Position numbers and translations under genes: made by a program. A stretch of 64,000 bases of DNA from a phage, in the sequence record OZ336095.1; one strand, 5' to 3'. Shown piece after piece: positions 3,128 to 58,263 of the stretch (positions are counted from its first letter, which is position 1; the number at the start of each line of letters is the position of its first letter). The notes beneath the pieces were generated by a model. It made no database searches. It was not told the DNA's origin and was given only the letters and a program-made list of their open reading frames with translations.

Positions 3128-4090
<963 letters not shown>

Positions 4091-4312
4091 AGTGATGCTG
4101 GTGAGTACCCGTTGGTTTATGCTGCTCAGTATACTCACCAAATTTTCTATGTCAACAACTTTTTATAAAAAAGTTCTGATAGCTATATGTGTCACGAAAC
4201 AAAAGATTGTAAACAAGACACCCATTGCAAAAGATGTGTCCAAAAGCTTACTTGCAACGTATGACAATACAAAGACAACCAGTATAAACAGAATGACTGT
4301 ACTGAACATAGT

Positions 4313-11842: not shown

Positions 11843-11850
11843 AAGAGAGA

Positions 11851-12051
11851 ATGAAGATGAGAGTAAAAGACAATTTTAAAGTTATTGACCACCGTTTAGT
11901 GGAACTCTCATCTCTTTCCAATGAGGTAATGATTGAACGTCTTAAGAGAGTTGAATCACGAAGGAAAGAGATTGCAGATGAAATTCATGAACTGGACAAG
12001 ATTGAAAATGGATTGAAGGCAGAACTACAACGAAGAGGTGCTAATGTCTAA
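11851..12051 (+). CDS. Hypothetical small protein, 66 aa
   Basis: ORF track; charged, helical-looking. Confidence 0.4.
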   Translation: MKMRVKDNFKVIDHRLVELSSLSNEVMIERLKRVESRRKEIADEIHELDKIENGLKAELQRRGANV

Positions 12052-14029
12052 AGGTCGTAAATTGAAAGAGGCTGGTCAGTTTGTTGGTCATTGTGCATGT
12101 CCACGTTGTGGTTCATCAGATGCTGGTTCAATCTATCATCATGACGATGATTCTTATTCAATGACTTGCTTTAGTTGTAACAAAGGTTTCCCAGAGTGGG
12201 ATTTTGATAAAGGACAAATCGTGAGCACTTATTCTACTGGTTCAGACAATAAAAACCGTACTTTCCGTGGAATGGACTTAGAAGATGTAAAAGAAAACCT
12301 AGAAGCAATGGACTTGAAAGACAGGAAGATTCCTGCAAAAGTCCTTGAACGCTTAGGTATCAAGGTTGACATTGACAGTGACGGTGAAATTGATGCGCAC
12401 TTCTATCCAACTTACAAACGTAATGAAGATGGTAAGCTAGAACACGTTGGTTACCGTGTACGTCACCGTTACCCAGAAGACCATCCAAAAGAGCACCTAC
12501 GTGGTAAGCTAAAAGACTTTTCTGGTGGTGTTGGAGACATTAAAGGTGAACTAGCAATGTTCGGTTCATGGATTGCTCCAGAAGGTGGTAACCGTCTATT
12601 CATCTGGGAAGGTGAGATGGAATGTGCGACAGCAATCTATATGACTTCTCTTGCGATTAAGGACAAATCTCGTCGTAAGAATTACTGTCACGTATCTGTT
12701 CCGTCAGGTGCAAACATTAAGTCTATCAAAGATAACTATCAGTACATTACATCATTTGATGAGATTTACTTGTGCTTTGATAATGATGAAGCAGGTGCTA
12801 AAGCTACCAAAGAGGCTGCTGGCATTCTCCCTATCGAGAAGGTTCGTTTATTTCAGTATCCAGAGGGTGTAAAAGACCTTAACGAATGGTGGACAAAGTT
12901 CTATAAAGAGAAAGACACAGTTCTTGAAGGGTTTAAGCAGCGTATCTACAATGCACCCCGTTACTGCCCTGCTGGTATCAAGAACTTCGCAGATGGTTTT
13001 GAGGCAATGAAGAATCGTGGTCAGATTCCATTGATTCCTTTCCCAGAATCTTTCGGAGATTTGAACAGGCTGACTTATGGCGGTTACGGTTTAGGTGAGA
13101 TTACAACTCTGGCAGCACCATCTTCAGTGGGTAAATCTGCATACACTCGTGAAATGATTTATACTGCTTGGAAGGATACCGATTACAATATTGGTGTAAT
13201 TCCTGTAGAAGATACCTATGAAGAGTTGATGGAGATGCTTTGTGCAATCCACCTCAGCAAGCAGATTTCTGAGATTCCTTATGACGAACGTGATTGGGAT
13301 GAATTGAAGGAAGCACATGCAGAGCTATCTAAAGGTCGTCGTATCCACATCGTAGACCATCAAGGTGCAATTGACCAAGATAACCTGCTGGAATTTGTTG
13401 ACTATCTTGTTAACAGTTTAGACTGTAAGATTATTATTCTTGACCCTATTACGTTGGCTCTGTCACGTTCAGATACGGATGAAGAGGAAGTTTTGTCTGA
13501 ACTATTGCGCCGTTGCAAACGCTACCAGTATGCACAGGTGAACGTCTGTCACGTTCGTAAGAGCGCAGGTGGTCAGAAAGCTAACTCTGAAGGTGGAGAC
13601 ATCTCTGAAGAGGATATTAAAGGTTCAGGTGCGTATTTCCAGATTTCTATGAACAACATTCTGTTAATGCGTAACAAGGTTGACCCAGACCCTGTTAAGA
13701 AAAACTTGACAAAAATCAAGTTAACTAAATGTCGTCGTCACGGTAAGTCAACAGGTATTGCTGGTCATACTTGGTACAACCCAGATACAGGACGCCTCAT
13801 CAAAGCATCTGGTTGTGGAGTTGACATTGATGGTGCAGCAGAAAATATTCGCCAACAGTTTGGTATTGGTGAAGCTGAAGACCATTACGATGACTCTTTG
13901 CCACATTATGAGGATGAAGTGTTTGACCGTGAAACTGGTGAAGTTTATACTGAAGAACAACGTCAAAGTTCAACAATTCCACCTGTATTAAGTGAGGATG
14001 CAGATGACTGCCCATTCGAAACTGAGTGA
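12044..14029 (+). CDS. Bifunctional DNA primase-helicase (T7 gp4-like)
   Basis: N-terminal Cys4 zinc finger (CPRCGSSD...CFSCNKG); Walker A GEITTLAAPSSVGKSAY; ATG at 12044 with GAAGAGG RBS (track start 12038 is GTG). Confidence 0.8.
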   Translation: MSKGRKLKEAGQFVGHCACPRCGSSDAGSIYHHDDDSYSMTCFSCNKGFPEWDFDKGQIVSTYSTGSDNKNRTFRGMDLEDVKENLEAMDLKDRKIPAKVLERLGIKVDIDSDGEIDAHFYPTYKRNEDGKLEHVGYRVRHRYPEDHPKEHLRGKLKDFSGGVGDIKGELAMFGSWIAPEGGNRLFIWEGEMECATAIYMTSLAIKDKSRRKNYCHVSVPSGANIKSIKDNYQYITSFDEIYLCFDNDEAGAKATKEAAGILPIEKVRLFQYPEGVKDLNEWWTKFYKEKDTVLEGFKQRIYNAPRYCPAGIKNFADGFEAMKNRGQIPLIPFPESFGDLNRLTYGGYGLGEITTLAAPSSVGKSAYTREMIYTAWKDTDYNIGVIPVEDTYEELMEMLCAIHLSKQISEIPYDERDWDELKEAHAELSKGRRIHIVDHQGAIDQDNLLEFVDYLVNSLDCKIIILDPITLALSRSDTDEEEVLSELLRRCKRYQYAQVNVCHVRKSAGGQKANSEGGDISEEDIKGSGAYFQISMNNILLMRNKVDPDPVKKNLTKIKLTKCRRHGKSTGIAGHTWYNPDTGRLIKASGCGVDIDGAAENIRQQFGIGEAEDHYDDSLPHYEDEVFDRETGEVYTEEQRQSSTIPPVLSEDADDCPFETE

Positions 14030-14281
14030 TAGTTATAAAAGAGAGGGGTTCACACCCTTCTTTGAAGAAAAAAGTTTAAATAAATTTCAGGAAGAGTGTT
14101 TGACAAAGGTTGATAGGTTCTATAGAATGCTCTACATGAAATGTGATGGAGGTGTTGAGGTAGAAGAAAAGTTCCACCACAGTATTATCACAGTCACTAT
14201 TACTATACCTCAGCATAATATTGGTTGGCTGTTTATAATGAAAGAAAATGTGTTTGAATATCAAGTATATCGGAGAATATC

Positions 14282-14431
14282 ATGAAACACTCTAAAGCAT
14301 TTGAAAAAGTTTTTGGGGATTCCTTAAAAGCCACTGCTGGAAAACCAGCAAAATACTATGAAGAAAAACGTGTAAGAACTGGAAAAACTGCACGTAAAGC
14401 AGCTTCTAAAGATAAGCACAACTTCCAGTAA
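14282..14431 (+). CDS. Small basic protein, 49 aa (below ORF-track size cutoff)
   Basis: ATG with GGAG RBS; MKHSKAFEKVFGDSLKATAGKPAKYYEEKRVRTGKTARKAASKDKHNFQ. Confidence 0.3.
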   Translation: MKHSKAFEKVFGDSLKATAGKPAKYYEEKRVRTGKTARKAASKDKHNFQ

Positions 14432-14445
14432 TTAGTAATTAGTAT

Positions 14446-14474
14446 TTGACAATAGAGTATCAACAAACTAGAAT
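14446..14474 (+). promoter_or_regulatory. Sigma70-like promoter
   Basis: TTGACA, 17 nt spacer, TAGAAT, about 35 nt upstream of the SSB gene. Confidence 0.55.
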
Positions 14475-14510
14475 TAGTACTCTTCATAAATTGAGATAGA
14501 GGTTTAAATA

Positions 14511-15368
14511 ATGTCTAAAGTTGTTAAAATGAAAGCTCCGGTAGAGAAGTACAACGGTACTGAACGCCAAACTCTGCGTTACCTGCTGAAAGATGTCTGG
14601 TTTTATTACCTGAACACTTCACCACGTCCGGGAAAAGGTAAATCTATTGATAAGAAATTCCCAGGAAAAGACTGTAACTACAGCGTATCAATTCTGGCAG
14701 AAGACGGTAACAAACTGTTTAAAGAGTTTACTAAGTCTAAGAAAAATCCAGAAGGCTGGGATAAAGTCACTACTGAAGCAGTTGATGCAGACGACTTCGA
14801 AGAGAAGTTTGGTTGTAAACCACCTTTTGAAGCAGACACTTACTACATCTTGAAAGTAAGTCGTGCAGCAGCTTATAAAGATGGTGCTGTATGGACAGCT
14901 AAACAGTCATTCCCTGTTATGCTTATTGAAGAAGTAAATGGTAAGCGTGTAGCTGTTAAACAGCCGATGAAGAAAATCAAAGCTCAAGCATCTGATAAAC
15001 ATGAAGATGATAAGAACTATGATGTAATTCATCCAGATATTGCAGTTGGTAACGGTTCTTTTGGTAGTGTGATTCTTTCTACTCACTTCTACACTTTTGA
15101 GAATAATGTTCTGACAAAACCTATTCAGGAACAGTTTATCATTGATACTCTTGTACCTTACACTGGTGGTAACGGTGCTAACGGCGAACCTGAACTGGAT
15201 GAAGACGAACTGGCTATGCTTGGTCTTGATGGTGTCGAAGATAACGGTGAAATCACTGAAGAAGACGCAACAGACCACAAACCTTCGAATGATTCTGATG
15301 ATGGTGACGATGAAGACTTGCCAGACCCAGATGACGAAGAAGATGAAGACTTCGATACAGAAGACTAA
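14511..15368 (+). CDS. Putative ssDNA-binding protein with acidic C-terminal tail (gp2.5-like)
   Basis: 285 aa; extreme acidic tail DDGDDEDLPDPDDEEDEDFDTED; position after primase-helicase. Confidence 0.45.
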   Translation: MSKVVKMKAPVEKYNGTERQTLRYLLKDVWFYYLNTSPRPGKGKSIDKKFPGKDCNYSVSILAEDGNKLFKEFTKSKKNPEGWDKVTTEAVDADDFEEKFGCKPPFEADTYYILKVSRAAAYKDGAVWTAKQSFPVMLIEEVNGKRVAVKQPMKKIKAQASDKHEDDKNYDVIHPDIAVGNGSFGSVILSTHFYTFENNVLTKPIQEQFIIDTLVPYTGGNGANGEPELDEDELAMLGLDGVEDNGEITEEDATDHKPSNDSDDGDDEDLPDPDDEEDEDFDTED

Positions 15369-28901: not shown

Positions 28902-30683
28902 ATGACTAAATCACTTTATGCAGTACCAGCAGGTTTAAACGCAGATGCTTACAAATCTGGTCATGTTTACCAGTACCCTAGTGCAACAGAATACTTGATG
29001 TTCAACCTGACACCACGTAGTGACAAATGGTTTAACAGCCCATTAGCAATTGATGGTGTAGTAGCTTTTGGTATTCAACGTTTCGTTAAAGATTACTTGA
29101 TAGACCACTGGAACGCCACTTTCTTTGAACGTGATAAAAAAGAAGCCATTGATGAAATATTAGAAGTCATGAATGGTGTTCTGGGTAAAGATGCTATCGG
29201 TCGAGAGCATTGGGAAGCACTTCACGACTTAGGTTATCTACCAGTTGAAGTATACGCTGTAGAAGAAGGTACAGTTGTCCCTATGCGTGTCCCAATGATT
29301 GTCTTCCAGAACACTGTTTCAGGTTTCCATTGGGTAGCGGGGTATCTGGAAGATGCTTTCTCTGCTGAGATTTGGAAGGCTTGTACCATTGCAACTATTG
29401 CATTGCATTATAAACGCATCTGTAAGAAGTGGGCTGACCTTACTTGCGACAACGACTTACATTTACCTTATCAGTGCCATGACTTTGCTATGCGTGGTAT
29501 GTCCGGCTTTACTGATGACGCATTTAACGCTGTAGGCCACTTAACCAGCTTTAAAGGAACTGATAGCTTCCCTGCTGTGTATACGGCTAAACGAATCTAT
29601 GGACAGTCTTACCCAATCTCTGATATTGGTAGCTCTGTACCAGCCACTGAGCACTCTGTAATGTGTGCAAACATTGCTTGGGAAGGTGGTAATGAGTTGA
29701 TTGAAGAAGAAAGACGCTTTAAAGGTGAGTTACAAACCTTCCGTCGTTTCTTAACAGAAACTTACCCAACTGGTATTGCAAGTATTGTTTCAGATACTTA
29801 TAACTTCTGGAGAACTGTGTCAGAAATCTTACCAGCACTCCGTAAAGAAATTATGGAACGTGATGGTAAACTGGTAATTCGCCCTGACTCTGGAGACCCT
29901 GTACATATTGTCACAGGTTATAAAGCAATCCACTTAGAGTGTGCTAAAAAGGCTTATTACGAGCACCTAAGCAAGCTTGAAGCCAGCGACACAATGTTGA
30001 ATGCTGTTCTGAACATGAAGCTTGAAAACATCAACTATGGTATTGCTGGATGGCTACTGTCAGAAGGCTACGAAATGGTTGTTGACAGAGAAGACTTTGA
30101 AGTTGCTGATACAGTGCTGTTGAAAAACGCTTATATGGTTGGTTCTGCAAACGTTGTAACACGTCCTGTAGCGGAGATTGATGGAGCTATCAAGACACTG
30201 TATAACATCTTTGGGGGAACTATTAACTCTAAAGGGTTTAAGGTACTGGATGAGCACATCGGCCTTATCTATGGTGACTCTATCACGCTGGAACGTGCAA
30301 ACGAAATCATGAAGCGTCTGTATGAAATGGGTTTTGCAAGCTCTAACGTAGTATTTGGTGTAGGCTCTTACACTTACCAGTACATGACTCGTGACACCTT
30401 TGCATTTGCTGTCAAAGCAACTCTTGCAAGCATTGGTGGTAAAGAGATTATGCTTGCAAAAGACCCTAAAACAGATAGTGGTGTTAAGAAATCTGCCTTT
30501 GGTGGTGTAGCACCTATGTGGGATGGTGAAAATCTGAAAGCTGTAGATGGCTATGGGTTCCAGAGCTTTGCAGATGCACTTGAACACCCAGCTTGTGCTT
30601 TACGTCTAGTCTTTAGTGACTCTGAGCAGTTCGGCTACACAACTCTTGGTGATATTCGAAATAATATTGACAAGCAGCTTTAA
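28902..30683 (+). CDS. Nicotinamide phosphoribosyltransferase (NAMPT/NadV) homolog; candidate nicotinamide ADPR transferase of NARP1
   Basis: 593 aa; N-terminal NADAYKSGHVYQYP resembles the NAMPT DSYKVTHYKQYP signature. Confidence 0.7.
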   Translation: MTKSLYAVPAGLNADAYKSGHVYQYPSATEYLMFNLTPRSDKWFNSPLAIDGVVAFGIQRFVKDYLIDHWNATFFERDKKEAIDEILEVMNGVLGKDAIGREHWEALHDLGYLPVEVYAVEEGTVVPMRVPMIVFQNTVSGFHWVAGYLEDAFSAEIWKACTIATIALHYKRICKKWADLTCDNDLHLPYQCHDFAMRGMSGFTDDAFNAVGHLTSFKGTDSFPAVYTAKRIYGQSYPISDIGSSVPATEHSVMCANIAWEGGNELIEEERRFKGELQTFRRFLTETYPTGIASIVSDTYNFWRTVSEILPALRKEIMERDGKLVIRPDSGDPVHIVTGYKAIHLECAKKAYYEHLSKLEASDTMLNAVLNMKLENINYGIAGWLLSEGYEMVVDREDFEVADTVLLKNAYMVGSANVVTRPVAEIDGAIKTLYNIFGGTINSKGFKVLDEHIGLIYGDSITLERANEIMKRLYEMGFASSNVVFGVGSYTYQYMTRDTFAFAVKATLASIGGKEIMLAKDPKTDSGVKKSAFGGVAPMWDGENLKAVDGYGFQSFADALEHPACALRLVFSDSEQFGYTTLGDIRNNIDKQL

Positions 30684-31616: not shown

Positions 31617-33983
31617 ATGCGCATGGTAAATGACCACGCAGAAGTGATTAAGAGTTCAACTTCTTTAGAGACGTCTCAAGCACAGATTACAATGACACCT
31701 GAGATGTTCAGCCTTTTGAGTTCTGGTGTATATACCTTTAAAGAAAGGGCAGTGATTCGTGAACTGTCATGTAACGCAGTAGATGCTCAGAAAGAAGCTG
31801 GAAAAGAGAACATCCCATTCCATGTGCATTTACCTACTCGTTTTGAGCCTTACTTCGAAGTTCGTGATTTTGGAACTGGATTGACTCATGATAAAGTTAT
31901 GAGTTTGTACCTAAACTATGGAGCTTCTACGAAGAATGACTCTAATGACTACATTGGTGCAATGGGTATCGGCTCAAAGTCACCATTTGCAATTGCTCAG
32001 TCATTCACAGTATCTAGTTATGTTGACGGTGTTGTTAATAAGTACTCTGTTTATCTTGAGAATGGTATCCCTCAAGTAACTAAGCTGACAACTAACCAAA
32101 CAAAAGAACCTAATGGTTTAGCTGTACGTGTGGCAGTTGCTGACCACCGTATCTCAAAGTTCTTTGAAGAAGCTGGGAATGTGTACTCATACTTCACTGT
32201 AAAACCAGAAAGTAATATTGAGTACGACGATGTATTAGCAGATATGAACGTAATTGCCCGTGAAGAAGGTGTTTATGATGCCATGATTCATAAGCACAGC
32301 TGGCGTTCTAGTGATAACAGGACAGAGTTTAATGTGGTGATGGGTAACATTGCCTACCCTGTTAATATGGAAGCATTACTTGGCGATGATTTCTTCAAAG
32401 TATTGCCAGAATTTTTCCGTAGGAGCGTAGACCTTGTAAACATCTACATGCCTATTGGTTCAGTTGCTATTGCAGCTTCTCGTGAAGCATTGCAGATGAA
32501 TGACACGACAAAAAATGTTATCATTGAGGCTACTAAAAAGATAACTGAAGCCATTACAAAGGATGTTATCAAAAAGATTAACAATCAGCCCACACTCATG
32601 GATGCTGCACAGGCTTATGCTGAGTTGCGTTTGAACTCACGAGAAATGTTTAATGCTGTGTGTCCAAAGCTAGAGTGGGGAGGCGTTAAGCTTGATTCTC
32701 TGGAAGAAGAGTTGCTAAACATTCGTCGCGGGATTATCTACGCAGAAGACGGCTCAGTCATTTATGAACGTGACGGTAAAGGTAATATTAAGGTTGATAG
32801 GAACGGGAACAATATCCCTAAAGTAGATTATCTTTATAACCCAGTTGCTTATGTCAAGTTCAACTCTTTAGAGAGTAAGATTCGTGCAACAGCACTTTCC
32901 TACACTCAAGAGGCAAGTATGTTCAATATCTTTGGTGCAATGCGTAAAAGCCAAATTGAACAGTTTTTGTTCGTGATTAATGACCGTCGCAATAAAAATG
33001 GTACTGAGAAGACTGTAGGCCGCAATCAGATTCTGCGTGGTGCATGTCGAGACTACGCCAGTGAGTCAAGTCTGTTTCACAGATACAATGGTATTGTGTT
33101 TGTATTCTCGACTGAAAAAGAGTTAGACGACCTAATCAATCTACACAAACTTGATAAAAGCTTGTTAAAGATTGTGAAGATGTCTGATAAGGAGCACCAT
33201 TATCAGCGTAAAGAAGCTGTAAGAGGTGTTGTAAAACTCTGGAAAGCTGTTCCAGCAGAAGGTGTAGCTTCCTATAAAGAGGTTTCAGAGGACTTTGATA
33301 CAATTGAAGAACCTCAGCTTTACATTAAGGCAATTGGTGACACAGTTGATGGCGAATGTTTTTGCTCATCTCCAGAAGATGTAGCCAAGTCAGTTGCTAA
33401 TGTTACAGGGAAGACAGTCTATGTTTTCCGAAAAGCAAATTGGAAAAAGATACCAGAAGACTGGATTGAAGTAGATGAGAAACTCTTGAACGACAGCTTA
33501 ACTGATGTTCATTGGATTAATCATAACAGGTATATGACACGTATCTATATGAATGGTGTCCTTGACCTTACAAGCAGTTGGATTATTGCCAGAAACTTTA
33601 CGTTCAATAACAGGAAGATTTCTCGTGGCTATTGCTATTCACGGGATACAAACAAAACTATCTTCCTAGAAGGAAATGAAGATGCTGTAGAGGCAATGTT
33701 CGGTAAAATCCAATACGTTGCTGCACCATTTGCATACACTTATACTATTAGTGTATTGAAAACTTTGAAAGACTGTCTTGACAATGATACAAAGCTTTAC
33801 AAGAAAATTAAGAAAGCTGGTGACCGTATGGTCATTAAGGTGACAAACTACCTTTCAAAAAGAAAACAAGAAAACTTCTTGCTTTCTCATTTAGATTGGA
33901 ATAAAGTGTCACCCATCGAAGTGAGTAAGTTCTTAGGCTTTGATGTAAAATGTGTTCCAGAAGGGACTACAATTTATGATTAA
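31617..33983 (+). CDS. rIIA: rIIA protein (GHKL-ATPase-like N-terminus)
   Basis: FSLLSSGVYTFKERAVIRELSCNAVDAQ, FEVRDFGTGL, NDYIGAMGIGSKSPFA match T4 rIIA N-terminal blocks; 788 aa. Confidence 0.8.
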   Translation: MRMVNDHAEVIKSSTSLETSQAQITMTPEMFSLLSSGVYTFKERAVIRELSCNAVDAQKEAGKENIPFHVHLPTRFEPYFEVRDFGTGLTHDKVMSLYLNYGASTKNDSNDYIGAMGIGSKSPFAIAQSFTVSSYVDGVVNKYSVYLENGIPQVTKLTTNQTKEPNGLAVRVAVADHRISKFFEEAGNVYSYFTVKPESNIEYDDVLADMNVIAREEGVYDAMIHKHSWRSSDNRTEFNVVMGNIAYPVNMEALLGDDFFKVLPEFFRRSVDLVNIYMPIGSVAIAASREALQMNDTTKNVIIEATKKITEAITKDVIKKINNQPTLMDAAQAYAELRLNSREMFNAVCPKLEWGGVKLDSLEEELLNIRRGIIYAEDGSVIYERDGKGNIKVDRNGNNIPKVDYLYNPVAYVKFNSLESKIRATALSYTQEASMFNIFGAMRKSQIEQFLFVINDRRNKNGTEKTVGRNQILRGACRDYASESSLFHRYNGIVFVFSTEKELDDLINLHKLDKSLLKIVKMSDKEHHYQRKEAVRGVVKLWKAVPAEGVASYKEVSEDFDTIEEPQLYIKAIGDTVDGECFCSSPEDVAKSVANVTGKTVYVFRKANWKKIPEDWIEVDEKLLNDSLTDVHWINHNRYMTRIYMNGVLDLTSSWIIARNFTFNNRKISRGYCYSRDTNKTIFLEGNEDAVEAMFGKIQYVAAPFAYTYTISVLKTLKDCLDNDTKLYKKIKKAGDRMVIKVTNYLSKRKQENFLLSHLDWNKVSPIEVSKFLGFDVKCVPEGTTIYD

Positions 33984-53153: not shown

Positions 53154-53618
53154 TTACTTTGGATATACACTGTCAAGATAAATGTCAGCTTCCATTCTAC
53201 GTCTGTTTTTCAGGCCGTTTGAAGTGACCTTCTTACCTTTTACTGTAACCTTGTTCCACCACTGCATAGCTTCTGCACAACCGACCTTATTACCAGCATT
53301 GTGGCGCTTGATAAATGTAGAGTCCTGCATAGCTGTGATACCAATGTTGTATGTTTCACTTACAAGTGCATCAAACTCATTCTGAGAAGTTGGAACCTTG
53401 ATGGCTTTGTTCACTGCTGTAACGAACTTTTCAACATCTGCAAGAAGATACTGTTCAGCTTGTTCAGCGGTAATCTTCATACCCATCTTAACAGGCTTCC
53501 CACCAATACGAATTGTCCCATACCCAATTGTGGGGATTCCAGCAGAATCTTCGTAAGACTCAAGCTTAAGACCTTCAAAGAACTTAATAGCTTCTAAACC
53601 TTTTCTTGAGAGTTGCAT
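53154..53618 (-). CDS. Lysozyme (GH24, T4 e / lambda R-like endolysin)
   Basis: N-terminal LEAIKFFEGLKLESYEDSAGIPTIGYGT matches the E...D...TIGYG catalytic region; GGGGAGG RBS; 154 aa. Confidence 0.75.
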   Translation of the reverse strand: MQLSRKGLEAIKFFEGLKLESYEDSAGIPTIGYGTIRIGGKPVKMGMKITAEQAEQYLLADVEKFVTAVNKAIKVPTSQNEFDALVSETYNIGITAMQDSTFIKRHNAGNKVGCAEAMQWWNKVTVKGKKVTSNGLKNRRRMEADIYLDSVYPK

Positions 53619-54751
53619 TATGCCTCCCCTGCTGTGTTAACAGTAACTGTTGCTGCATTAGATGTTACAGAGCCACCTGCACCAGTAACTACACAGGTGT
53701 AGCTTCCTGCATCAGCAGCGGTTGCACCTTCTTTGGTGTAAGTTGCAGCAGTTGCGTCTGGGATGACTTCCTCACCTTTCTTCCACTGATAACCTGTTGC
53801 ACCAGTAGCCACAACATTCAGCGTTAAGGTCTCACCTTCAGTGATTTCTTGATTGGTTGGCTGTTGAGTAATTACTGGAAGTGCGTTCACAGTTACTACA
53901 GCAGCATTAGATGTCACTGCACCACCCGCACCTGTTACAACGCAAGTATATGAGCCTGCATCTGCTGGCAGAGCACCAGACTTGCTATAGGTAGCATTTG
54001 TAGCTGAAGGAATGTCAGAGCCATCTTTCTTCCACTGGTAACCTGTCGCACCTGTTGCAGTCACTTCCAAGTTAATGCTTCCACCCTCATTGACAGTCTG
54101 ACCAGAAGGCTGCTGTGTAATCACAGGCAGTGCATTAACAGCAACTGTTGCCGCATCTGAGGTAACACTTGTTCCAGCCTCTCCAGATACAACACAAGTG
54201 TATGAGCCAGCATCAGAAGGTACTACGGACTGTTTTGTATAAGTTGCAGAGGTGGCACTAGGAATATCCTCTCCATCCTTTTTCCATTGATATCCAGTGG
54301 CATTCGTTGCAATAACACTTAGGGTAAGCGTACCACCTTCATTTACTGTTTGATTGGTTGGTTGCTGAGTGATTGCTGGTGGCTTGATAGCATCCTTCAA
54401 CTTAGCATTCAACATTGAGAATGGTTTAACTCTTGCCAGCCATTCACAATAAATTGTGTCAACGTCTTTACCATTGATAATTGCATATTGTAAGTCCATG
54501 AAGAAGTCAGAAGTTCTCATTTGAGCACCAATGCTGTAAAGCAACTCATCACTAAATGGAACTTTGTAGTCTGGTTTGTAGTCAAACTCATCGACTTCTG
54601 CAATATCAGCTTCAGGCCAATACGAACTGTAGGTAAGCGGTAAAATAGCCTCTTGATATGTTCTAAAATCATATCTCTTACCAGCCTTTACGTTTGCAAT
54701 GAAGCCCTTCACAAACTCTTTGAAGTCTGGGTAAGTCTTTGCTTTAATCAT
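53618..54751 (-). CDS. Protein with N-terminal unknown domain and three tandem Ig-like domains
   Basis: Three roughly 85-aa repeats each with YQWKK...SATYT...AGSYTCVV.G; N-terminal 125 aa paralogous to 54748..55119. Confidence 0.6.
   Translation of the reverse strand: MIKAKTYPDFKEFVKGFIANVKAGKRYDFRTYQEAILPLTYSSYWPEADIAEVDEFDYKPDYKVPFSDELLYSIGAQMRTSDFFMDLQYAIINGKDVDTIYCEWLARVKPFSMLNAKLKDAIKPPAITQQPTNQTVNEGGTLTLSVIATNATGYQWKKDGEDIPSATSATYTKQSVVPSDAGSYTCVVSGEAGTSVTSDAATVAVNALPVITQQPSGQTVNEGGSINLEVTATGATGYQWKKDGSDIPSATNATYSKSGALPADAGSYTCVVTGAGGAVTSNAAVVTVNALPVITQQPTNQEITEGETLTLNVVATGATGYQWKKGEEVIPDATAATYTKEGATAADAGSYTCVVTGAGGSVTSNAATVTVNTAGEA
53621..54379. repeat. Three tandem coding repeats of about 250 bp (Ig-like domains)
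   Basis: Direct repeats visible at protein level within 53618..54751. Confidence 0.7.
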
Positions 54752-55119
54752 TTCTTTTTAGCCTCTAAATGTGCGTTTAGTCTAAAATAACCTTTGTGAT
54801 GCGGAGATACGTCACCAACAACAATACCTTTAACCTTATAACCTTTACCAATTACATACTGGATATCCATAAGGAATCTTCCAAGACCAACAATATGGAA
54901 CATTGGATATAATAGATTCTCAGAGTCTGGAATATTGATTTCGGGTTTGTAGGTACGATGTTCGATTGTTGGTGTAATATCTTCTTCAGGCCATTTGCTG
55001 AGTCTCCATGTCAAAGGTGTTGGGATAACATCATTAAGGCTGTACCTTTCACCATTTTGCACGGAATTGACATAGGATTGTAGGAAGCAATAAAAGTCTT
55101 TTGCACTCTTAGCTTTCAT
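54748..55119 (-). CDS. Paralog of the N-terminal domain of the Ig-like protein (no Ig domains)
   Basis: Shared blocks ...GKRY...WPE.DI...YKP...SE.LLY...FMD.QY.I..G with the adjacent gene. Confidence 0.5.
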   Translation of the reverse strand: MKAKSAKDFYCFLQSYVNSVQNGERYSLNDVIPTPLTWRLSKWPEEDITPTIEHRTYKPEINIPDSENLLYPMFHIVGLGRFLMDIQYVIGKGYKVKGIVVGDVSPHHKGYFRLNAHLEAKKK

Positions 55120-56375: not shown

Positions 56376-56747
56376 ATGAAAAACAGAACAAACAAAGGCC
56401 AGTTTAAAAAAGGCCAGTCTGGAAACCCATCTGGAAGACCAAAAGGCTCTCGTAACAAAAGCTCACTTGTAAAAGCTCAACTGACCATTGATAATTCTGC
56501 TGAGTTTGCTGCAAAGTTGTTTGAGGCGGTTGTTACAAGGGATGCTGCTAAGCTTGCAGAGTTCGGTTTGACGACTGACGATGTAAACCTGAAGTCGATG
56601 ATGGAGGCTGGTAAAACCATCATGACTCACTCAGCAGGTGAGATGAAAGCGATTGCAGCAGACACTAAGAAGACCCCTGATAATGGTGGTCAGTCTCAGA
56701 CAGATAACAAACCAACGTTCTCTGCTGTAGCGACTCTCAAAAAATAA
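56376..56747 (+). CDS. Hypothetical protein with N-terminal Gly/Pro-rich basic motif
   Basis: KGQFKKGQSGNPSGRPKGSRNK motif. Confidence 0.45.
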   Translation: MKNRTNKGQFKKGQSGNPSGRPKGSRNKSSLVKAQLTIDNSAEFAAKLFEAVVTRDAAKLAEFGLTTDDVNLKSMMEAGKTIMTHSAGEMKAIAADTKKTPDNGGQSQTDNKPTFSAVATLKK

Positions 56748-56828
56748 TTTTAAAAGGTGTTGACAGACTCTACAAAGTTGCTCTAAAGTCTGTCACATCA
56801 ACAAACAAATGAGAGAAGAGAGTAAAAT

Positions 56829-58244
56829 ATGAGCGAATTATTTAAACATGCGCACCTTCATGCAGGTCGAACTGAAAATGGTGCTGTAAACCATACTTCA
56901 TCAATGTCTGCTCTTGTAGACTTTTACAAAGCTGCTGGTTCAAGCCGTAGCAACGTAGAAATCTTACCAGACCTGTTCTACAAAGCTTTGCGTGAGGATG
57001 TTGATGTTGCAGTTCGTATTTTGCTTCATATGCGAGATGTACGAGAAGGCATGGGTGAGCGTAAAGCCTTCAGAACTGTTTTACTTCAAGCGATTGAAGA
57101 TAAGGTTTTAGAACCTACACAGGTTCTTCGCATTATGGATAAGATTGCAGAGCTTGGTCGTTTTGATGACTTCAAAATCTTCGTAGGTACTCGTTTCGAG
57201 ACAGATGCCTTCAAACATTTAGAAGCAGCATTACTAGACCCTGCAACAGCAGGTTTGGCAGCCAAGTGGCTACCACGAGTCAAACCACGTCATAAGCAGT
57301 TTGTAAAACGTTTCTGCAAGTTTGCCAACTTGAGTGAGAAAGAGTACCGCACACTGTTGTCTGCACTATCTGATACAGTTGAGCAAAAAATCTCTGCTAA
57401 TGAGTTTGGTAAGATTGACTACAGTAAGATTCCTTCACTTGCTGCTGCACGTTACCAAAACCTGTTTAACCGTAAAGATGGAGAGCGTTACAAAGCTTAC
57501 ATCGAGTCCTTATCAAAAGGTGAGACTAAGATTAACGCTGGTGCTGTTTACCCATACGATGTGATTAAATCTATTAAGTATGGTAATGCAGATGTTGCTA
57601 ATGAGCAGTGGAAAGCACTACCAAACTGGATGGCAGAAGGTGAAAACATCTTGTGCATGACTGATGTCTCAAGCTCAATGTCTTGGGTGAATCTTGGTTC
57701 AATCACTGCTCTTGATATTGGTGTATCACTTGCATTGTATGTTGCAGAACGTAATACAGGTTGCTTTAAGAATGAGTTGATGGTTTATTCAACAAACCCT
57801 CACTTCATCGAACTGAGTGGTGATTTACGAAACCGTCATCGTCAGGTGATGCGACACGTTGAATATGGCTCAACTAACTTACAAGCAGCTTTTGACCGTA
57901 TTCTTGAGACAGGTAAAAGAAACAACTTGACTCAGAAAGATATGCCAAGTAAGCTTATCATTTTCTCCGATATGGAGTTTAATCAGGTTGATGGTGCTAA
58001 TGGCCGTACAAACTTCGAAGCAATTCGAGATAAGTACGAAAAAGCTGGATATGAGATGCCACAACTGGTATTCTGGTACTTAGCAAACCGTAATGGTACT
58101 TGCGAAGTGTCTGTTAAGGATAACGGTGTAGCAATGGTATCAGGCTTCTCTCCAGCTACTTTAAAAGCTCTGCTTGGTGGTGAGAAGTTTGACCCAATCA
58201 GCGTAATGCTCAAAGCAGTAATGATTGACCGTTATATCTGGTAA
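56829..58244 (+). CDS. von Willebrand factor A (vWA) domain protein with helical N-terminal region; possibly TROVE/Ro60-like
   Basis: MIDAS-like DVSSSMS motif after a roughly 270-aa helical region; C-terminal LIIFSDMEFN; gene ends about 170 bp before the tRNA cluster. Confidence 0.45.
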   Translation: MSELFKHAHLHAGRTENGAVNHTSSMSALVDFYKAAGSSRSNVEILPDLFYKALREDVDVAVRILLHMRDVREGMGERKAFRTVLLQAIEDKVLEPTQVLRIMDKIAELGRFDDFKIFVGTRFETDAFKHLEAALLDPATAGLAAKWLPRVKPRHKQFVKRFCKFANLSEKEYRTLLSALSDTVEQKISANEFGKIDYSKIPSLAAARYQNLFNRKDGERYKAYIESLSKGETKINAGAVYPYDVIKSIKYGNADVANEQWKALPNWMAEGENILCMTDVSSSMSWVNLGSITALDIGVSLALYVAERNTGCFKNELMVYSTNPHFIELSGDLRNRHRQVMRHVEYGSTNLQAAFDRILETGKRNNLTQKDMPSKLIIFSDMEFNQVDGANGRTNFEAIRDKYEKAGYEMPQLVFWYLANRNGTCEVSVKDNGVAMVSGFSPATLKALLGGEKFDPISVMLKAVMIDRYIW

Positions 58245-58263
58245 AAAAGTTTTAAAAAGGGTA

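Follow-up and report, generated by a model that had tools for sequence, protein, structure and literature searches.

A predicted Ro60-like protein and candidate Y-RNA-like elements at the tRNA cluster of a Felix O1-like phage

We analysed a 64,000-nucleotide (nt) stretch of phage DNA (sequence record OZ336095.1; the whole stretch is called the window below), concentrating on a gene for a Ro60-like protein at 56829–58244 on the plus strand and on four RNA elements, E1 to E4, in the transfer RNA (tRNA) cluster downstream of it. The source phage is a Felixounavirus (a Felix O1-like myovirus), and the 3 kb around the gene are 97–98% identical to many Escherichia and Salmonella phages. The original prediction had described here a 471-amino-acid (aa) open reading frame (ORF) with a helical N-terminus and a C-terminal von Willebrand factor A (vWA) domain, and had suggested a Ro60-like protein acting on the RNAs of the adjacent cluster. 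The ORF is present exactly as described. It begins with ATG, a start that is supported because homologue alignments begin at residue 1 and reach 100% coverage. The features of the locus are as follows.

56760..56789, plus strand: sigma-70-like promoter (TTGACA, 18-nt spacer, TAAAGT) directly 5' of the Ro60-like gene; a consensus match only (consensus scan, 10/12 matches)
56829..58244, plus strand: gene for the 471-aa Ro60-like protein (Pfam DUF2828 and DUF7788; PHROG 850 "RNA-binding protein"), from the ORF, the Pfam and PHROG matches and fold matches to Ro60
56829..57638, plus strand: residues 1–270, a half made of helical repeats, superposable on the HEAT/TROVE ring of Ro60 (predicted structure)
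57651..58193, plus strand: residues 275–455, Ro60-type vWA domain (DUF7788), from Pfam PF25043 (E = 6 × 10−43), vWA_Ro60/VWA_2 matches in relatives and hhalign (E = 4 × 10−6)
57663..57677, plus strand: metal ion-dependent adhesion site (MIDAS) motif D279-V-S281-S-S283; T349 (57873–57875) and D381 (57969–57971) complete the motif
58264..58384, plus strand: two promoter-like sites (58264–58292 and 58355–58384) ahead of the tRNA/small-RNA cluster (consensus scan)
58411..63556, plus strand: 26 clustered tRNA genes sharing the strand of the Ro60-like gene, with E1–E4 embedded (ARAGORN, Rfam)
58577..58655, plus strand: E1, Y-RNA-like element between tRNA-Glu and tRNA-Met; CAGCAA at 58594–58599
58744..58809, plus strand: E2, Y-RNA-like element between tRNA-Met and tRNA-Asn; CAGCAA at 58761–58766; also found by covariance model R1 (below)
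59133..59212, plus strand: E3, Y-RNA-like element; CAGCAA at 59150–59155; outer stem GGGC/GCUC, stem AGACCAA/UUGGUCU
59220..59357, plus strand: E4, long Y-RNA-like element; handle AGACCGUU/AACGGUCU; CAGCAA at 59237–59242 (fold, T-arm scan, tRNA-model match)

To characterise the protein, we combined profile searches with structure prediction. Pfam returned DUF2828 (PF11443; 101.4 bits against a cut-off of 29, E = 7 × 10−29) and DUF7788 (PF25043; 147 bits against a cut-off of 27.1), and PHROGs gave a full-length match to phrog_850, "RNA-binding protein" (E = 1.8 × 10−183). Structure prediction had been proposed as a check with the original prediction; a confident AlphaFold2 model computed from an alignment (predicted local distance difference test score 87.7, predicted template modelling score 0.87) consists of roughly 17 helices as far as residue 270 and an alpha/beta domain after them. 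We compared this model with the PDB using Foldseek and found that the 11 best matches, all at E ≤ 2 × 10−6, are full-length Ro60/TROVE proteins, namely the TROVE-domain entry 9kop, the Ro60 of Thermus phage phiLo, Xenopus and human Ro60 and Deinococcus Rsr. The predicted model has the arrangement of Ro60/Rsr proteins, a helical HEAT-like domain and then a vWA domain, superposable on solved Ro60. Its N-terminal region falls short of a full TROVE domain, as had been noticed from the sequence (about 270 aa against about 350 in Ro60).

The vWA half is of the Ro60 type. The segment DVSSSMS corresponds to residues 279–285, and the MIDAS motif is complete because D279, S281, S283, T349 and D381 are invariant across a 40-sequence alignment (42–89% identity); in profile alignments this segment falls in register with the Ro60 MIDAS motif DVSASM. 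Alignment of the family profile against human Ro60 (query sequence checked against PDB 9nen) using hhalign gave E = 1.6 × 10−4 over the vWA half only, and alignment against a profile of six canonical TROVE proteins gave 87% probability and E = 4 × 10−6, pairing residues 266–451 with Ro60 357–522. A phmmer search of the protein against PDB sequences found nothing significant, and a profile search reached Ro60 at E = 0.6 only, which we took as a lead and not as evidence. The helical half has its own invariant residues (T15, N17, G18, R40, R69, D70, R72, G74, G76, E77, R78, G110, R111, D113, D114, K146, W147, R208 and Q210), and its conserved basic residues R40, R69, R72, R78, R111, K146, R150 and R208 are compatible with, though no proof of, a Y RNA-binding outer surface. 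By predicted fold and vWA subtype, the protein is Ro60-like, and it stands outside the Pfam TROVE family as now defined. The gene product is most likely a compact, divergent Ro60/Rsr-class protein, in which a helical HEAT-like ring would be closed by the MIDAS-containing vWA domain.

The first tRNA of the cluster is a tRNA-Pro at 58411 (ARAGORN), 166 nt past the end of the gene. The gene had been said to end about 170 bp before the tRNA promoter; this distance fits the first tRNA, while the promoter-like sites lie nearer, at 58264 and 58355, the first of them within a hairpin at 58256–58287. E1–E4 occupy 58577–59357, in the first kilobase of the cluster and 333–1113 nt downstream of the gene. 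RefSeq annotates nothing in these gaps, and an Rfam scan of the window's RNA cluster found tRNAs and chance-level matches only. The sequence CAGAAGACCNNNTNCAGCAA occurs in four exact copies in inter-tRNA gaps (58580, 58747, 59136 and 59223), against 0.56 expected by chance. Each of the four elements folds alone into a common architecture, namely an outer 4-bp stem, an AGA/G internal loop and a 7–8-bp stem, after which come a single-stranded nUACAGCAA and a variable interior. E1 has the outer stem UGAC/GUCA, the AGA/G internal loop and the stem AGACCAA/UUGGUCU (58584–58590 / 58644–58650); E2 has the outer stem UUGC/GCAA and the stem AGACCGU/ACGGUCU; the outer stem of E4 is UUAC/GUAA. Both E1 and E2 lie 4–5 nt past one tRNA and 9 nt ahead of the next.

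Among the four copies in the window, E4 alone contains a permuted tRNA-like domain (T arm, closed acceptor-like stem-loop, D arm). Its interior runs in the order anticodon-like hairpin, T arm (GAAGGUUCGAUUCCUUC), closed acceptor-like stem (ACUCGGC/GUCGAGU) and D arm (GUGUAAUGGUAGCAC), and the tRNA model matches it partially at 22.5 bits, covering the anticodon-like arm and the T arm. The exact Felix motif, CAGAAGACC...CAGCAA, was found in Felixounavirus loci only and at first suggested a lineage-specific element, which the generalised register described below ruled out. The outer 4-bp stem and the AGA/G internal loop are not conserved beyond Felixounavirus and were therefore left out of the family definition. 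Short CAGCAA elements (58752–58805 in the window; 11844–11900 and 6430–6489 in L022, where numbers beginning with L denote the loci compared) also scored weakly against Rfam's Dictyostelium Class I RNA (24–31 bits, below the gathering score of 41.5), which likewise has a short 5'/3' stem with an adjacent conserved motif; this is probably a chance architectural similarity.

We searched for the shared part of these elements, which we call the handle, in 80 viral-contig loci encoding relatives of the protein, 75 of them 38–47% identical (76 loci non-redundant; 1.42 Mb). The handle has the consensus WGR-N7-CAGCAA...YCU-G in a fixed register: the start of WGR always precedes CAGCAA by exactly 10 nt, and the 3' strand finishes with YC(U/A), directly before an invariant G. 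The strict descriptor comprised a stem of at least 7 bp starting with WGR, 1–3 nt, CAGCAA, and a partner strand within 230 nt ending in C(U/A)G; the relaxed descriptor took the invariant G-C pair and the trailing G as its anchors. Over the 1.42 Mb of viral loci, the strict descriptor matched the gene strand 101 times and neither the opposite strand nor shuffled sequence at all; in an independent set of 80 bacterial genome-assembly loci the counts for gene strand, opposite strand and shuffled sequence were 22, 2 and 0. The sequence-only motif WGR-N7-CAGCAA occurred 137 times on the gene strand versus 20 on the opposite strand, and 100 of the 137 (73%) had a 7-bp partner with the G after it, versus a background of 8%. 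The stem sequences are wholly different between loci yet complementary: pair 7-36 is AU in 38 copies and GC in 38, pairs 8-35, 10-33 and 11-32 each show at least four pair types, and shifting the partner strand lowers pairing from 83% to 34–43%. The handle thus marks a covarying, strand-specific RNA family. A covariance model of the joined half-elements with the interior removed (R1) was dropped, as it missed E1, E4 and all Mycobacterium, Listeria and Campylobacter phage copies; because R1 was poorly sensitive, we relied on the descriptor with its strand and shuffle controls. Counts for the relaxed descriptor were:

Viral loci: gene strand 118, opposite strand 4, shuffled 1; copy present in 58/76 loci
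Genome-assembly loci: gene strand 40, opposite strand 3, shuffled 0; copy present in 22/80 loci
Isolated phages, DUF2828 type: gene strand 14, opposite strand 0, shuffled 0; copy present in 5/5 loci
Canonical TROVE loci: gene strand 0, opposite strand 0, shuffled 0; copy present in 0/5 loci
T4 and T5 tRNA regions: gene strand 0, opposite strand 0, shuffled 1; copy present in 0/2 loci

A block of Clostridia loci in the genome-assembly set was negative at first. A k-mer analysis of 42 of these loci found ACAGCAA no more than 700 nt upstream in 37 and a T-loop motif upstream in 30; in one example (L145), the first A-U pair of the handle is missing. The relaxed descriptor recovered the Clostridia loci only in part, and they may carry a variant of the handle.

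The handle accompanies the protein family across phages of Proteobacteria, Actinobacteria, Firmicutes and Campylobacter, often without a nearby tRNA. A strict match was present in 51 of the 76 non-redundant loci, in 35 of these no more than 700 nt from the gene, and 22 of these 35 have no tRNA within 3 kb. Of 81 matches, 54 lie within 1 kb of the gene, a zone holding 12% of the bases (p = 3 × 10−30), and for 75 either the gene or a tRNA is close by (p = 1 × 10−42). Every tRNA in the 80 viral-contig loci (449/449) is on the strand of the Ro60-like gene. The arrangement varies: Mycobacterium phage Nicholas has three tandem copies directly after the gene in the order short, long, short; Listeria phage List-36 has three copies upstream of the gene; Campylobacter phage CP8 has a single copy 20 nt upstream; a metagenome-assembled, phage-like contig of about 143 kb (L090) has two copies downstream; and the KVP40-like Vibrio phage phi-pp2 has two copies within its tRNA cluster. 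On both strands, we found no CAGCAA handle in five canonical TROVE phage loci or in the T4 and T5 tRNA regions.

This distribution bears on whether the elements might serve tRNA operons as signals for processing or punctuation, such as hairpins recognised by an RNase, with an unrelated protein whose gene is close by only as a by-product. We consider this very unlikely. Copies do sit between tRNAs in the window and several other loci, 5–12 nt from tRNA ends, and 29 of the 81 matches fall within 300 nt of a tRNA, but the 22 loci with an element beside the gene and no tRNA within 3 kb argue against such a signal, as do the empty T4 and T5 clusters (both strands) and the empty canonical Ro60 loci that lie within tRNA clusters; moreover, an invariant single-stranded CAGCAA with modular cargo is unexpected for a simple cleavage hairpin. 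Alternatively, the elements could be bound by the protein and yet act in cis, as operators in the 5' or 3' untranslated region of the gene's own transcript that serve autoregulation or mRNA stabilisation. Many loci have an element on the same strand 27–60 nt past the stop codon or 35–200 nt before the start codon, and the copies within 1 kb of the gene number 23 upstream and 31 downstream, as operators might. That the elements are mainly operators is nevertheless unlikely given the window copies, 333–1113 nt downstream beyond two promoter-like sites and with tRNAs intervening, the arrays of up to 5–7 copies (L022, L072), the copies 6–7 kb off beside tRNA-Met or transfer-messenger RNA (tmRNA) in several loci, and the long copies with tRNA-like domains matching YrlA.

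These long copies have YrlA-like cores. A T arm is present in 9 of 31 long copies, several in the order T arm, closed acceptor-like stem, D arm, and this permuted tRNA-like order has been described for bacterial YrlA (PMC4201824). The Rfam YrlA model (RF02553) aligned full-length to copies in L072 (14497–14612, 38.9 bits; E = 4 × 10−5 in a three-locus search and 1.7 × 10−7 with the locus alone), L022 (12413–12542, 34.8 bits) and Nicholas (4048–4156, 37.9 bits), with E values for the three between 4 × 10−5 and 6 × 10−4. In the alignments of the L072 and Nicholas copies, the T, acceptor-like (AS) and D arms fit the consensus, and the outer stems and the GNCGAA region do not. The proposed Rsr-binding motif, GNCGAA(N)G, does not occur; the invariant CAGCAA stands in its place, 10 nt after the stem start. 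The YrlA-like RNAs by canonical TROVE phage genes also score below the Rfam threshold, at 32.5–46.8 bits (Sixama 46.8, Bxz1 32.5), and the handles of these two are CGAA-like.

We compared the locus with known systems. It shares with bacterial Rsr/YrlA-YrlB of Deinococcus and Salmonella (PMC4201824) a ring protein (a predicted ring in the window protein) of helical repeats and a MIDAS vWA domain with RNA genes adjoining, RNAs with a closing stem, a conserved 5'-proximal motif and a modular interior able to be permuted tRNA-like, and, in some loci (List-36), a nearby RtcB RNA-repair gene that echoes the Salmonella operon rsr-yrlBA-rtcBA (PMC7790460). It differs in that the window protein is about 60–70 aa shorter than bacterial Rsr, belongs to DUF2828/DUF7788 and not TROVE, and lacks sequence similarity in its N-terminal half; in that its handle is WGR-N7-CAGCAA...YCU-G, not GNCGAA(N)G; and in that most CAGCAA copies are minimal 50–70-nt hairpins without a tRNA-like domain, several per genome and interleaved with tRNAs. 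Unlike the window protein, phiRo60 of Thermus phage phiLo (PMC12135203; PDB 9l5y) is deposited as a TROVE domain-containing protein, and its Yrl1 and Yrl2 RNAs carry CGAA. Experimentally, phiRo60 binds Yrl RNAs and host polynucleotide phosphorylase (PNPase), attenuating PNPase (PMC12135203), whereas the corresponding interactions of the Felix O1-type protein are predictions. The canonical actinophage "Ro-like RNA binding protein" (Bxz1 gp220, Gordonia Sixama gp163 and others) is similar in lying among tRNAs, with a YrlA-like RNA about 0.2–1.3 kb away, and in the functional label that annotators give to both types; it is dissimilar in being 33–40% identical to human Ro60 and in having CGAA-like handles and no CAGCAA handle. 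Directly upstream of one such canonical gene, in Rhodococcus phage Trina (L088), a 209-nt pseudogene annotated "tRNA-OTHER" (1143–1351) is probably a Y RNA mis-called as a tRNA, although it has no Rfam YrlA match at E ≤ 0.01.

The tRNA clusters of T4 (rnaC, rnaD) and T5 (RNAI, RNAIII, RNA1, RNA2 and others) contain stable RNAs of no assigned function (T4 70908–71171 in L091; T5 30284–30644, 31808–31979, 32838–33083 and 40848–41566 in L092). Like E1–E4, they are small non-tRNA RNAs inside a phage tRNA cluster, some of them tRNA-like and presumably co-processed with tRNAs. They occur, however, in phages without the protein, as all Escherichia phage matches to the family are Felix-like, and in tRNA regions without the CAGCAA handle; they are therefore a different class.

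We think it probable that the locus encodes a divergent phage Ro60/Y-RNA particle, made of the Ro60-like protein and the Y-RNA-like small RNAs E1–E4. This agrees with the original prediction of a Ro60-like protein acting on RNAs of the cluster, RNA binding itself being predicted. As we infer the mechanism, E1–E4 would be co-transcribed with the tRNA cluster, probably released by the enzymes that process the flanking tRNAs, and assembled with the protein. The handle, a 7–9-bp helix with single-stranded CAGCAA and a trailing G, would be the putative protein-binding site and the counterpart of the GNCGAA/CGAA handle of canonical Y RNAs; two protein types that each pair with their own handle type, over similar cargo, make the pattern that such a binding site would be expected to produce. 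The variable interior would be the cargo, in E4 a permuted tRNA-like domain as in bacterial YrlA. During infection, the particle would most likely redirect or dampen a host 3'-to-5' exoribonuclease, or otherwise supervise structured RNA such as tRNA, roles that we propose because of the analogy with Rsr, Y RNA and PNPase in Deinococcus and Salmonella and with phiRo60 and Yrl in phiLo.

Several results weigh against the particle. On the protein side, a Pfam search of the window protein gave no direct match to TROVE (PF05731), nor to VWA, at E ≤ 1, and the TROVE profile matched 0 of 40 family members even at E ≤ 10. The profile check that had been suggested came out divided, since VWA_2 matched 23 of the 40 relatives and the dedicated vWA_Ro60 profile 10 of 40 (best E = 1.7 × 10−4). 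In the hhalign comparison with the six-sequence TROVE profile, residues 1–265 remained unaligned, although that profile is shallow and a deeper one might reach further. The resemblance to the ring rests on predicted structure, because the N-terminal half has no sequence-detectable TROVE similarity, and alpha-solenoids can look alike without common descent. The protein could in principle be a generic vWA/MIDAS interaction module with a helical extension, for example an assembly cochaperone, that has no role with RNA and whose likeness to Ro60 is convergent or an artefact of prediction. The missing TROVE match, the detection by sequence of the vWA half only and the records that say just "vWFA protein" would suit such a module; isolated vWA domains first appear in the Foldseek list at E = 3 × 10−3, and we regard this explanation as highly improbable.

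On the RNA side, the pair counts are partly circular because the strict descriptor demanded pairing; independent support comes from the strand and shuffle controls and the sequence-only motif test. The relaxed descriptor did not detect the CAGCAA element in 18 of 76 viral and 58 of 80 genome-assembly loci. Long copies in relatives reached 28.7–38.9 bits with the YrlA model, below its gathering threshold of 69 bits, and E4 alone gave no match to this model at E ≤ 10. The link of the Felix O1-type particle to PNPase is drawn by analogy only, and a search of 10 larger ORFs of the window turned up neither an RNA ligase nor RtcB.

To place the protein, we surveyed its family. Homologues fall into 2544 database clusters at E ≤ 1 × 10−3 and 710 phage records, which include by organism Escherichia (120, all Felix-like), Mycobacterium (95), Salmonella (77), Vibrio (56), Listeria (54), Staphylococcus (42), Campylobacter (40), Enterococcus (36), Bacillus (28) and Aeromonas (23), plus a Lak megaphage, and at least 453 stretches of bacterial genome assemblies encode a DUF2828-type protein. 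Mycobacteriophage homologues (for example Nicholas gp54, E = 3 × 10−71) are labelled "Ro-like RNA binding protein" while their Pfam domains are DUF2828 and DUF7788; other records name a member merely "vWFA protein". Canonical TROVE Ro60 (33–40% identity to human Ro60) is found in 358 phage records, almost all of actinophages, and a Ro60 query of phage records did not retrieve the Felix-type family. We lean slightly towards a wider interpretation, in which DUF2828/DUF7788 would be a second and more widespread phage Ro60-type branch (710 versus 358 records; at least four host phyla) with its own universal handle. The handle family of modular Y-like RNAs, from 50-nt hairpins to tRNA-like and other cargos, would then explain some unannotated gaps in tRNA clusters, and there would be two orthogonal recognition codes, CGAA with TROVE and CAGCAA with DUF2828.

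Phage Ro60 with Y-like RNAs is already known (PMC4201824, PMC12135203, PMC7824862), and databases label the family "RNA-binding protein" or "Ro-like". We found no description of the CAGCAA handle family in the open literature, to which the search was confined, so that a prior description is possible; nor did the accessible literature describe E1–E4 as RNAs in the Felixounavirus tRNA cluster or the strict pairing of handle type with protein type. A 2025 study of Sf14 tRNAs does not mention Ro60 or Y RNAs, and a search for DUF2828, phage Ro60/TROVE and YrlA in bacteriophage returned genome announcements and the papers cited here only.

Other features lie near the Ro-type genes. In List-36 (L082, NC_024364.1), a match to ROOL RNA at 926–1477 (91.5 bits against a gathering score of 99.1; E = 1 × 10−17) sits between tRNAs about 1 kb upstream of the Ro60-like gene, and an RtcB "tRNA splicing ligase" gene, 1.3 kb from the Ro60-like gene, and an HD phosphohydrolase gene lie downstream; large structured RNAs and RNA-repair genes therefore cluster with the Ro60-like gene in this phage. 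Many loci with a Ro60-like gene, and one canonical TROVE locus, also have a phage tmRNA gene on the same strand (L022 8605–9054; L026 1317–1767; L085 3468–3889; 5–9 kb downstream of the gene in L032, L037, L040, L052 and L060), and in L032, L037 and L040 CAGCAA elements lie near the tRNA-Met that comes after the tmRNA. In L090, the tRNA region that follows the Ro60-like gene has an insertion, an IS605 OrfB / Cas12f-like TnpB gene (13393–14652). A Band-7-like membrane protein gene stands near the Ro-type gene both in the DUF2828-type mycobacteriophage Nicholas (gp48; L081 231–1163) and near the canonical TROVE gene of Trina (gp138; L088 3142–3996), which could be a shared neighbour or coincidence.

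Within the window's tRNA cluster, an unannotated tRNA-like sequence at 60206–60290 (+) combines acceptor-like ends (GGGACG...CGUCCC) with a T arm and a loop reading "CCUCCAAAACC". It is missed by ARAGORN, and its only Rfam match is tRNA-Sec, at 22.4 bits; the 47%-identity relative L006 (88 kb) has a similar sequence at the matching position (about 13990–14066). This could be a tRNA that is degenerate or unusual (anticodon CCA?), or else a tRNA-like RNA of another kind. The 247-nt gap at 59738–59984 (+) contains the best promoter-like site of the region (59753–59781, 11/12 matches) and weak matches to tmRNA models (RF04321, 29.2 bits; RF00023, 15.1 bits), and further long non-tRNA gaps lie at 60062–60299, 60390–60644 and 61383–61638. 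The tRNA cluster of L006 also contains a small ORF (13320–13680) with an HNH-like end (...CANCHREIHN), resembling the homing endonucleases of the T4 and T5 tRNA clusters. Directly upstream of the window's Ro60-like gene, the gene at 56376–56747 (+) codes for a DUF5681 protein of 123 aa whose N-terminus is very basic and rich in glycine (KGQFKKGQSGNPSGRPKGSRNK); the gene has the same position in Felixounavirus records. Farther away, a 377-aa ORF at 53618–54751 (−) has three tandem Ig-like repeats ("ITQQP.NQ.V.EG..L.L.V.ATGATGYQWKK..."), and its N-terminal 120 aa or so resemble the neighbouring 123-aa ORF at 54748–55119 (−); the two ORFs probably encode paralogues with a decoration or fibre-associated role.

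Conservation of Ro60-Y RNA particles extends from bacteria to humans, yet what they do in bacteria and phages is poorly understood, and studies of them have hitherto been built on TROVE-annotated proteins. If DUF2828 is indeed a Ro60 branch with its own handle, the number and host range of phages carrying such a particle would roughly triple, and a function would be assigned to a widespread gene now called hypothetical, vWFA or RNA-binding in Felix O1-like, KVP40-like, Listeria P100-like, Campylobacter and mycobacterial phages; typing and biocontrol make use of some of these phages. The partner RNAs could then be annotated by a simple sequence-and-structure rule. Orthogonal codes would let the phage particle work without cross-talk in hosts that have their own Rsr-YrlA, such as Salmonella, and the two handle types offer a ready contrast for how Ro60-type rings read RNAs. 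With one protein and four short RNAs, the system is tractable in E. coli and Salmonella for asking what a phage Ro particle does, whether in PNPase control, tRNA surveillance or defence evasion.

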